From NCBI RefSeq assembly GCF_057098645.1, contig NZ_JBXSPU010000005.1: a stretch of DNA of 4,285 bases. One strand, 5' to 3'. This DNA comes from a plasmid. Made by a program: the position numbers and the translations under genes. The first letter of the stretch is position 1. Every line of letters begins with the position of its first letter. Below the pieces are notes generated by a model. The model worked only from the letters and a program-made list of their open reading frames with translations, did not search any database and was not told the origin of the DNA. Shown here in pieces: positions 1,586-3,880 of this stretch.

Positions 1586-3805
1586 ATGGCGATTTATCAT
1601 CTCAGCATGAAAATCATTTCGCGAAAAAACGGCTACAGTGCCGTTGCTTCTGCTGCCTACCGTTCCGGCTCTGTCATACCCGATGACCGTACCGGATTAA
1701 TCCACGATTACACCCGTAAACGCGGCGTTGATGATGCGGTCATTCTCACCCCTGCGAATGCACCGTCCTGGTGTGGTGACCGTTCCGTTCTCTGGAATGC
1801 GGTCGAGAAAGCCGAACAGCGCCGGAACTCCCAGCTGGCAAGGGAGATTGAACTCGCCATTCCCCGTGAGATTTCCCGCGAGGCCGCACGGGAGGCCGTT
1901 CTCGCTTTTGTCCGGGAAAACTTTGTCAGTCGGGGCATGATTGCCGATGTGGCGTTCCATCATATGGACCGGACCAACCCCCATGCACACATCATGCTGA
2001 CCACGAGAGCTGTCGGGGAAACGGGATTCGCAGGAAAGGTCAGGGACTGGAACGACCGGGCACTCGCCGAGACGTGGCGCGCATCATGGGCTGACCATGC
2101 GAACAGAGCGCTTGCGAACGCCGGCTACCAGGAAGAGATAGACCATCGTTCATACGAGCGTCAGGGACTGGAGAAAGCGCCGGGCCTTCACCTCGGAAAG
2201 GCTGCCTGTGCGATGGAAAAACGGGGCATGGAAACAGAACGCGGTGAGCAGAACCGCCTGATTAACAGCCTTAACCTGGAAATACAGGTTTCCCGCACAA
2301 GGCTGGCAGTCATCCAGGTACAGGAGAACGTGCGGAAACGGGAACTCAGCGATGCCGCACGTCGTGCAGCGGAAGCCCTTAATCTGACCATTCCCGCCGC
2401 GAATGCCTCAGCGGATACCCTGCGGGAATTCATTGCCACACTGCCGCAGGAATGCGGGAACGCATGGGAGATGACACCGGAGTTCGTGGCGATGAACGGG
2501 AAGGCAAACGACATCAAACGTGAGGGGAATGCGCTGGTGAAAGAGCGGGATATTCTCGAAAAAGAGATGACCGGACTCAGAAAAGCCCGTCCGGTAGCGT
2601 CCATCCTGTCAGAGCTTCCCCTGATGACATGGGCTGAACCGGAATACCGCAAAAGACAACTCCGCTTCTGGAAACTCGAGAAACAGATTGAATCTCTTCT
2701 CCGCACCTACAGGGCCGTGAAAGAACGGGACATTCCCGTCCGTCGTCAGGCCTTTGAAACGCAGTGGAATACGTGGATTTCGCCGGGAATGGCAGAGCTG
2801 AAAGAAAAACTGTCAGCACGGGAAGCGGAGCGGCGCAGGGAGGAAGCCGAAGCGGAAGCGCGCCGGAAGGAACAGGAATATGACGCACGGCTGAAACACC
2901 ATGATAACCATCGCCTGAGCCGAGAAACGGCATTAGCCGGGGTTATTACGGAGCTGGGGCGTGCCAGAGAGCCGGGAACGGGCAGGATAACCCGCTACAT
3001 GATGCTGAGTAACAGAGCCGGAGAATTCACGGTATGGGGTGATGAGCTGGCGCATTACCCCCAGAGTGTTCATGACCCGGTGAATGTTTACCTGTCGCCA
3101 GGCGGGGCTGTGATGGTCTCGGATATACGTGAGGGAATGCCAGAATCTCATGAGACGATGGCGCGGCCTGAGCGTGTGAGAATGTATTCCGGTGCGACGG
3201 TCCGGCATGTACTGGAACAGATGCGCCAGGGGTGGCCCTCTTACGGTTTTCCGGCGCTGCCGCATCACTGGCCGGATAATTTTTATTTCAGCGACGACCG
3301 CAGGCCCGCAGCCTCTCCGCTGCCGTCAGCGCACCGGGTGGACGTCACCGCTTATGCGGCACCGGAGCAACTCATGCCCGTTGTCTTTTCGACAGAGCGA
3401 AACAGCAGGACGCTGAATCTGCTGTTGTGCGAAGGGCCGGAGGAAATGCTTGTCGGTTTTGTGCGCCTGGAGGACGAGCTGCGTCCCGTTCTTGCGCTTC
3501 CGTCGCCGGATTACAGTCATCTGATGGTAAGCATCATCACAGAGAACGGGATACACCTGGCAGGCTACGGTGAGGCCATAAACCGTGATGCTGATACTCC
3601 GTACCCACCGGAACCGAAGCTGATGCAGTTCAGGCTTAAGGGCTGTCAGGACACGCTTTTTGCTGCCATCAACAAACCGGAAGAGATGCCGGATTATCTC
3701 TTCCGTCAACTCGGATTTAATCAGACCTGGCATGAATGGAAGCGGGACGAACAGCACAGGCAACAACAACGACGCCCCGGACATTACCGGGGCATGAGTA
3801 TGTGA
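1586..3805 (+). CDS. mobA: Mobilization relaxase MobA (MobA/MobL family, MOBQ), with a long C-terminal region of unrecognised function
   Basis: Frame is open from GTG 1499 to TGA 3803-3805. I place the start at ATG 1586 because the product then begins MAIYHLSMKIISR, the canonical N-terminus of MOBQ relaxases (RSF1010 MobA begins MAIYHLTAKTGSR). Catalytic Tyr25 is at codon 1658-1660 and the histidine-triad motif HHMDRTNPHAHIM at residues 125-137 (about 1958-1996). WADHANRALANAGYQEEIDHRSYERQG also matches RSF1010 MobA (WADHANRALERAGHDARIDHRTLEAQG). No strong Shine-Dalgarno precedes 1586, so the start is not exact. Residues from about 240 to 740 have no motif I recognise. Confidence 0.9.
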   Translation: MAIYHLSMKIISRKNGYSAVASAAYRSGSVIPDDRTGLIHDYTRKRGVDDAVILTPANAPSWCGDRSVLWNAVEKAEQRRNSQLAREIELAIPREISREAAREAVLAFVRENFVSRGMIADVAFHHMDRTNPHAHIMLTTRAVGETGFAGKVRDWNDRALAETWRASWADHANRALANAGYQEEIDHRSYERQGLEKAPGLHLGKAACAMEKRGMETERGEQNRLINSLNLEIQVSRTRLAVIQVQENVRKRELSDAARRAAEALNLTIPAANASADTLREFIATLPQECGNAWEMTPEFVAMNGKANDIKREGNALVKERDILEKEMTGLRKARPVASILSELPLMTWAEPEYRKRQLRFWKLEKQIESLLRTYRAVKERDIPVRRQAFETQWNTWISPGMAELKEKLSAREAERRREEAEAEARRKEQEYDARLKHHDNHRLSRETALAGVITELGRAREPGTGRITRYMMLSNRAGEFTVWGDELAHYPQSVHDPVNVYLSPGGAVMVSDIREGMPESHETMARPERVRMYSGATVRHVLEQMRQGWPSYGFPALPHHWPDNFYFSDDRRPAASPLPSAHRVDVTAYAAPEQLMPVVFSTERNSRTLNLLLCEGPEEMLVGFVRLEDELRPVLALPSPDYSHLMVSIITENGIHLAGYGEAINRDADTPYPPEPKLMQFRLKGCQDTLFAAINKPEEMPDYLFRQLGFNQTWHEWKRDEQHRQQQRRPGHYRGMSM

Positions 3806-3837
3806 TATCCGGGGCTGCACCCCGAACCCCGCCAACG

Positions 3838-3880
3838 TCTCACGGGACACGAAAAAATTCCGCGTCCCGTGAGGCGTTTT
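3838..3880 (+). terminator. Candidate intrinsic terminator of mobA
   Basis: Inverted repeat CTCACGGGAC (3839-3848) / GTCCCGTGAG (3864-3873) with a 15-nt loop, followed by GCGTTTT (3874-3880), 34 nt after the mobA stop. The long loop is atypical. A smaller hairpin CGGGG(CTGCA)CCCCG sits at 3810-3824. Confidence 0.5.

Follow-up and report, generated by a model that had tools for sequence, protein, structure and literature searches.

Small plasmids of the MOBQ4 group are among the commonest in clinical and commensal Escherichia coli, Shigella and Salmonella and carry nuclease colicins. The determinants of which conjugative plasmid mobilises which small plasmid are poorly understood, notably for IncI-type (Dot/Icm-like) systems. 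The DNA analysed here (NCBI RefSeq assembly GCF_057098645.1, contig NZ_JBXSPU010000005.1; 4285 bp in full, hereafter the window) is the backbone of a small ColE2-like plasmid of E. coli (PlasmidFinder Col156), and the subject is its mobA gene (1586-3805, plus strand; stop codon at 3803-3805 in the list of open reading frames, ORFs), which encodes a MOBQ42-type relaxase of 739 residues. Family, layout, motifs and essentially the whole sequence are the same as in the MOBQ42 relaxases of ColE2-like/Col156 plasmids (e.g., ColE9-J). The gene, its family and a resemblance to Sog proteins are already known from Garcillan-Barcia et al. (2019; PMC6856555), who noted a "low homology to SogL primases" for this relaxase family. 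The matched part of Sog and the structure, distribution and function of the tail are not given in that account of MOBQ4, and a search of the later literature found no paper extending the analysis of the tail. What appears to be new is the placing of the match at the non-primase end of Sog, the division of the shared part into two domains, the absence of a Pfam model or solved relative for either of them, the confinement of the shared part to two kinds of protein and the repeated exchange of tails.

Several described systems bear comparison with the C-terminal two thirds of MobA. The Sog proteins of IncI1 plasmids (SogL and SogS of R64 and ColIb-P9) and of other plasmids with a type I mating-pair formation system (MPF_I) are homologous to MobA over their last ~300 residues, at 34-40% identity. 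Barrel, large domain and tail are common to Sog and MobA and always C-terminal; where Sog has DUF5710, Toprim and LPD7 domains and a long low-complexity linker, the corresponding place in MobA is taken by a relaxase head and a helical stalk. The MobA-RepB' protein of RSF1010/R1162 (MOBQ1) is similar in its MOBQ head (PDB 2ns6 matches residues 2-181 of MobA) and in having a large C-terminal extension, but the extension in the window has no primase domain, no convincing internal start and no detectable similarity to RepB'. The R1162 extension reportedly carries type IV transport signals, a result attributed to Parker and Meyer in 2007. The TSA/TSB regions of F/R1 TraI, and TrwC, are likewise non-catalytic relaxase parts proposed to recruit to the coupling protein (PMC8406263); they differ in fold, are unrelated in sequence and are relaxase-specific, whereas MobA has its module in common with an exported protein encoded by the helper. 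The tail of MobA is read here as a helper-matching adaptor that would couple the small plasmid to an MPF_I helper through recognition by its secretion system, and the probability of this reading is put at roughly 0.45.

Residues 449-733 of MobA aligned to residues 946-1246 of the reference SogL (1255 residues, from an IncI-gamma/K1 plasmid) at 34% identity (BLASTP, E = 8e-49). Because the DUF5710 (residues 8-59), Toprim (266-365) and LPD7 (776-861) domains of SogL all lie upstream of the match, the shared part is its extreme, non-primase C-terminus. A word-indexed search returned mostly near-identical relaxases, together with E. coli proteins annotated "LPD7 domain-containing / DNA primase" that matched about half of the query at 37-40% identity. 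When the last 271 residues were compared with plasmids by tblastn, ~2300 records fell below 60% identity, and these divided into MOBQ41 relaxases (~41%) and sogL genes carried by IncI-type conjugative plasmids (34-37%).

The sequence-only reading had recognised no primase motif and no known domain in this region, and a motif scan, Pfam, NCBIfam and PDB sequence profiles bore it out. Toprim, DUF5710 and LPD7 had no Pfam match in MobA, and no EGYATA-like primase, Walker A or CxxC/zinc-finger motif was detected in it; the domains that define a Sog/TraC-type plasmid primase or an RSF1010-type fusion to RepB' are absent. The same reading had drawn an analogy with RSF1010, where the equivalent region is a primase that is additionally produced on its own from an in-frame start inside the gene, and this analogy failed, as the tail contains neither a RepB'-like nor a Toprim domain. 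The internal ATG/GTG codons (at residues 210, 303, 318, 472, 597 and 621) were preceded by weak 4-nucleotide matches to a Shine-Dalgarno sequence. No such codon coincided with a domain boundary and none fell between codons 318 and 472, where a product consisting of the Sog-like C-terminus only would need to begin. No Shine-Dalgarno-plus-start combination was convincing, and an internal start of the RSF1010 repB' kind is considered unlikely. That the region is a primase, RepB'-like or Toprim-like and possibly also made from an internal start, is suggested by the RSF1010 analogy and the published homology to SogL primases and by nothing further; motif, domain and alignment evidence are all contrary, and the idea is effectively excluded. 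The published resemblance to SogL should not be taken as "primase-like".

The shared module was modelled with AlphaFold2 from an alignment of 21 sequences (A1), and the model was confident (predicted local distance difference test, pLDDT, 87.3; predicted template modelling score, pTM, 0.69), with three parts. The first, residues 449-515 (2930-3130, plus strand), is predicted to be a closed five-stranded barrel of oligonucleotide/oligosaccharide-binding (OB)-like topology (b1-b2-b3-helix-b4-b5), with a short helix between strands 3 and 4 and a conserved W-G motif (W484, G485). The second, residues 528-712 (3167-3721, plus strand), is a larger beta-rich domain with conserved QG, AGYG and LGF motifs, a net charge of -7 and pLDDT above 90 in most blocks. 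The third, residues 713-739 (3722-3802, plus strand; net charge +3), comprises the C-terminal helix TWHEWKRDEQHRQQQ, modelled at residues 715-729, and a short basic tail of low pLDDT, and aligns with the C-terminal tails of Sog. The W-G barrel and the QG/AGYG/LGF domain thus stand at the extreme C-terminus of MobA, and local hidden Markov models (HMMs) scored them at 4.5e-17 (barrel) and 2e-72 (large domain). Neither Pfam nor NCBIfam had a match for the 501-residue tail or for any of the 21 module homologues, and PDB sequence searches with the MobA protein and with profiles of both sub-regions gave matches in the relaxase head alone; for both beta domains there is neither a Pfam model nor a solved relative. 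Profile searches, as proposed in the sequence-only reading, gave no confident assignment to a well-characterised family. The tail is no orphan, however, since residues 449-733 are homologous to SogL. Its description of the C-terminus as Trp/Pro-rich holds for proline (8.9% of residues 449-739) and not for tryptophan (1.7%, against 2.1% in the relaxase head).

The predicted fold of the barrel bears on a different possibility, namely that the module binds or coats single-stranded DNA (ssDNA), the barrel, perhaps with the second domain, holding or protecting the transferred strand, whether in the donor or in the recipient. Such a role has long been the subject of speculation for Sog, and the OB-like fold would suit it. 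Most members have an acidic large domain, and the MobA barrel is acidic too (net charge -2, pI 5.5), unlike the basic barrels of Pseudomonas-type Sogs; because of this acidity, protein-protein contact fits better than DNA coating. Both the charge pattern and the lineage-specific distribution of the module weaken the case for ssDNA binding, which is considered unlikely. Were the tail just an accessory DNA-binding domain, the finding would be ordinary.

Exhaustive searching of 1.84 billion representative proteins with phmmer yielded no more than 66 hits. The long ones all combined the module either with a MobA_MobL relaxase or with DUF5710, Toprim and LPD7, and the profile search added no third architecture. 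On the sequences searched, the full module is limited to Sog-type primases in MPF_I tra operons and to MOBQ4-type relaxases. All of the Sog-type genes inspected were located in MPF_I operons between icmT/traK and traL-traM(DotI)-traN(DotH); the contexts were those of IncI-gamma/K1, IncL/M, IncK2/Z, a Klebsiella plasmid, a Pseudomonas plasmid and one further assembly. Matches to the local HMM for the large domain were confined to these relaxases and Sogs, plus a partial match in the IncL/M primase, which carries the module (hhalign whole-module probability 99.5%). Within 78 kb of the IncI-gamma/K1 plasmid Sog was the sole carrier, with neither domain in NikB, TrbA-C or TraT-Y. The HMMs found neither domain in TraC, TraI or TraG of R751, and IncP TraC was rejected as a carrier of the module for R751 because hhalign and the HMMs were both negative.

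The barrel was also found by itself. It forms the C-terminus (residues ~246-334) of the unrelated, MOBP-type MobP1/TaxC relaxase of IncX3 (L007:2266-3426), and tblastn detected it in "ddp2" and IncA/C Toprim proteins. The W-G barrel has no Pfam model and seems to represent a domain, so far undescribed, that is widespread among proteins of conjugative DNA processing.

Tails and heads of the MOBQ4 relaxases have different relationships. Four diverged relaxases had heads that were 68-83% identical, and their tails fell into two Sog clades with 22-25% identity between clades. The tails of MobA and of MOBQ41 relaxases clustered together (bootstrap 98) and then joined the IncI-type Sogs (bootstrap 100). 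Those of P0059 and P0081 (E. coli, HBA7909065.1) fell in another Sog lineage (bootstrap 100), where the P0081 tail paired with the Sog P0093 to the exclusion of the other relaxase tail (bootstrap 100). The P0081 tail had 76-78% identity to a Sog of the IncK2/Z lineage, and 77-78% to the Sog of 22 IncK2/Z-type plasmids from E. coli and Salmonella. Within MOBQ42, synonymous divergence was 0.04 in the head (1586-2296) and 0.15-0.22, i.e., four to five times as high, in the stalk and tail (2297-3802). This gap points to separate histories of head and tail and to mobA as a mosaic gene. The low divergence of the head has two possible explanations: either recombination moves the head together with the oriT region as one block, or constraint at the nucleotide level acts on the 5' part of the gene. 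Given the tails of two clades on similar heads and the gap in divergence, tails moved between Sog and relaxase genes at least twice.

Further variants of the gene were seen among its relatives. P0059, a MOBQ4-type relaxase, has two tandem barrels ahead of the large domain (L010:838-3312) and comes from a 7.4-kb Rep_3 plasmid contig with a glycosyl hydrolase 28 gene and a gene for a major facilitator superfamily (MFS) transporter. In P0052 (WP_265210645.1, 621 residues) approximately residues 1-393 of MobA are fused in frame to the C-terminus of an E2/E9-type colicin DNase (HNH), as identified by Pfam PF21431 and PF03389, with the junction at about window positions 2760-2770; UniRef lists 17 Enterobacteriaceae entries. 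This fusion presumably arose by deletion between mobA and the downstream col gene. In a pColE3-like plasmid (CP157139.1; L013) mobA starts at position 1599 of the locus and is unannotated, and it has a premature stop at codon 258, so that some lineages seem able to do without the entire tail. Annotation of mobQ was missing in several other close relatives of the whole window.

As a helper-matching adaptor, the C-terminal ~500 residues would be a non-catalytic extension of a MOBQ relaxase. The stalk with its ER/K-rich helix would serve as a spacer holding out the ~290-residue module (residues 449-733), and through the module the MPF_I coupling/secretion apparatus would accept the relaxase with the transferred strand covalently bound to it. 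The relaxase-DNA complex would then take the same route as the helper's own exported Sog. Among MOBQ4 helpers, the MPF_I plasmids R64drd11 and pCTX-M3 are the most efficient, MOBQ4 plasmids commonly co-reside with MPF_I plasmids, F, R27, R388 and pKM101 give no help, and R751 is 100-1000-fold poorer than an RP4 derivative (PMC6856555). According to the passage of PMC8406263 that cites Wilkins and Thomas (2000), the I1 system delivers hundreds of copies of SogL to recipients, and this export does not depend on DNA. In transposon sequencing (TnSeq) of IncI1, the SogS part (C-terminal 844 residues, module included) scored 1.00 for "required for transfer", and about a quarter of sogL, the primase-specific N-terminal end, was dispensable (PMC4288162). 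It is because of helper efficiency, Sog export, the TnSeq result, the restricted distribution and the tracking of Sog lineages, taken in combination, that the tail is read as an adaptor. Of the options left by the sequence-only reading (a primase, a coupling-protein interaction domain or something else), the interaction domain is the one we infer to be best favoured. A bolder proposal is that MOBQ4 plasmids match their helper through a copy of its Sog C-terminal module and re-tune their specificity by swapping tails of Sog lineages; this is possible, though on balance we think it doubtful.

Several observations weigh against a helper-matching adaptor. The tail encoded in the window is only 34-40% identical to any Sog, and the similarity between tail and Sog could come partly from the opportunity for recombination between co-resident plasmids and not from selection for matching. 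The cognate IncI relaxase NikB has neither domain, so the module is no general entry ticket to MPF_I. MOBQ4 plasmids are nevertheless mobilised by the IncP helpers RP4 and, with lower efficiency, R751 (PMC6856555); as R751 TraC does not have the module, other signals must exist. The folds closest to the barrel are ssDNA-binding OB folds.

Export of Sog into the recipient also suits a role in establishment there, in which the module would dock on co-transferred Sog (homotypically) or on host replication proteins for priming of the strand. Relaxases enter the recipient with the DNA, and Sog, with the same module beside a primase, is exported in bulk. A role of this kind would stand in for the relaxase-fused primase of RSF1010, the ColE2-type Rep primase of MOBQ42 plasmids acting at the vegetative origin (PMC6856555), and Sog-type proteins have been counted among the "polyvalent" proteins, which are delivered for early action in a new host (PMC5512222). 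The case is circumstantial throughout, and a homotypic contact would presuppose self-association of the module; an adaptor predicts equally well that tails match the helper's Sog, and the dispensability of the Sog primase part in IncI1 TnSeq counts against establishment, which is judged quite unlikely.

If the Sog-like tail is the element that matches helpers, it would offer a sequence rule for predicting helper range and a handle on how Sog is recognised for export, and its barrel and large domain would be two uncharacterised families worth a Pfam entry and a structure. If helpers are matched by the swapping of tails, Dot/Icm-like (MPF_I) conjugation systems would have their first defined substrate-recognition domain in this module, and a portable element would determine which small plasmid can be moved by which conjugative plasmid.

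Between the relaxase head and the module lies an all-helical, family-specific stalk (residues 238-436; 2297-2893, plus strand), as predicted in an AlphaFold2 model of residues 214-739 with a pLDDT of 75.9 overall and ~50-83 in the stalk. The model has helices at residues 218-252 and 298-333, a low-confidence loop at 334-351 and one predicted helix of 85 residues at 352-436; the profile search found no relatives of the stalk outside MOBQ4 relaxases. Most of the motif PLMTWAEPEY (residues 345-354; 2618-2647, plus strand) falls at the end of the loop, and its remainder opens the long helix. Of the ten positions in the motif, eight were invariant in three relaxases with just 41-42% identity in the stalk; its loop portion is low in pLDDT and predicted to be disordered, and the motif is missing from P0081. 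It may be a short linear docking motif. The last third of the long helix (residues 404-436; 2795-2893, plus strand), helical in the model, is ER/K-rich, with E, R, K or A at 79% of positions. The charged, repeat-like stretch that the sequence-only reading had put at about 2821-2880 falls here: EAERRREEAEAEARRKEQE, residues 413-431, was placed at 2822-2878. A tandem repeat was rejected as its explanation, since the sole repeat at the DNA level is an array of GGAAGC (3.2 copies, 19 nucleotides, 2842-2860), and an ER/K-type helix fits better.

The length of the stalk varies among relatives. In P0081 most of it is gone and an ER/K-rich linker alone joins the relaxase to the module, and P0046 (679 residues) has a 60-residue in-frame deletion within it. 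The hexapeptide VKERDI is encoded twice in the window, at 2537-2554 and 2717-2734, 180 nucleotides apart; the P0046 deletion corresponds exactly to the 60 codons between these repeats, as expected from slippage or repeat recombination.

The stalk is also where a role without helper specificity would be placed. The tail might serve relaxosome assembly or cis-preference, through oligomerisation, tethering to the plasmid or contact with MobC. MOBQ4 relaxases act at least 500-fold better in cis (PMC6856555), PLMTWAEPEY is strongly conserved and lies partly in a disordered loop, and long helices often dimerise. These points cover the stalk but not the Sog-like module, which P0081 keeps though most of its stalk is gone, and they leave the sharing with Sog and the tracking of Sog lineages unexplained. 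As an account of the tail, relaxosome assembly or cis-preference is very unlikely.

The HUH relaxase head occupies residues 1-237 (1586-2296, plus strand). Pfam MobA_MobL (PF03389) spans residues 18-213 (E = 2e-70; 237 bits against a cut-off of 26.7) and NCBIfam MobQ (NF041496) residues 1-193 (E = 7e-78; 261 bits against a cut-off of 200), so that both curated cut-offs for a MOBQ (MobA/MobL) relaxase were exceeded. TraA-type models extended to residues 245-260, PDB sequence matches (NES 4ht4 and MobA 2ns6) were restricted to residues 2-190, and four diverged relatives aligned without gaps up to residue 237. The catalytic tyrosine of motif I (Y25) and the histidine triad of motif III (HMDRTNPHAH at residues 126-135, HxDx3PHxH) are present; the same catalytic residues are named for MOBQ4 in PMC6856555. 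Window position 2300 corresponds to codon 239, and the Pfam, NCBIfam and PDB sequence matches agree with the earlier placing of the end of the relaxase signatures at about residue 240.

The frame is open to 3805 from either GTG 1499 (768 residues) or ATG 1586 (739 residues). The ATG gives the conserved MAIYHLSMK start and is also the start in the RefSeq annotation of pDETEC85. The GTG was chosen by the mechanical ORF call and by some JGI gene calls and would fall within the mobC-mobA oriT region. Downstream of position 2300, the 501-residue tail matched a database cluster (3771 member sequences) at 96% identity and had a GC content of 0.54-0.61. Against related plasmids its ratio of nonsynonymous to synonymous substitution rates (dN/dS) was 0.23-0.33, with substitutions in excess at third positions. 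Since it has protein-level homologues (MOBQ4 relaxases and Sog) and this dN/dS, and since the mobA frame alone remains open in relatives, the tail is genuine protein, as had been supposed from its continuous frame in GC-rich DNA.

Overlapping ORFs of 74-174 residues in other frames were found at 2188-2706, 2577-2933, 2933-3268 and 3326-3850 on the minus strand and at 3192-3416 on the plus strand. Their maximal length varied among relatives, one antisense frame having only 70 residues in MOBQ41, and an overlapping, mobB-like gene was rejected because the lengths of the alternative-frame ORFs are not kept. They are probably by-products of a GC-rich coding strand.

The window, which carries three genes, belongs to the MOBQ42 group of Garcillan-Barcia et al. 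(2019; PMC6856555), with a ColE2-type Rep and a divergent mobC-oriT-mobA arrangement. The rep gene occupies 1-915 (Pfam Replicase, PF03090, and PriCT_1, PF08708). A mobC-like accessory gene of 88 residues, annotated as "mobilization protein" in pDETEC85, lies at 1141-1407 on the minus strand, divergent from mobA, and the 178-bp gap between the two (1408-1585) contains oriT, as located in PMC6856555. MOBQ42 plasmids carry a cer-like site (PMC6856555). Identity over nearly the whole window was 94-99% to pColE8, to ColE9- and ColE2-type colicin plasmids and to the 4.3-kb cryptic plasmid pDETEC85, which is near-identical and typed Col156/MOBQ in PLSDB. The window ends ~480 bp past mobA, and it lacks the genes for a colicin, immunity and lysis that most of its close relatives (6.7 kb) carry; it resembles colicin-less derivatives of 4.2-4.4 kb such as pDETEC85.

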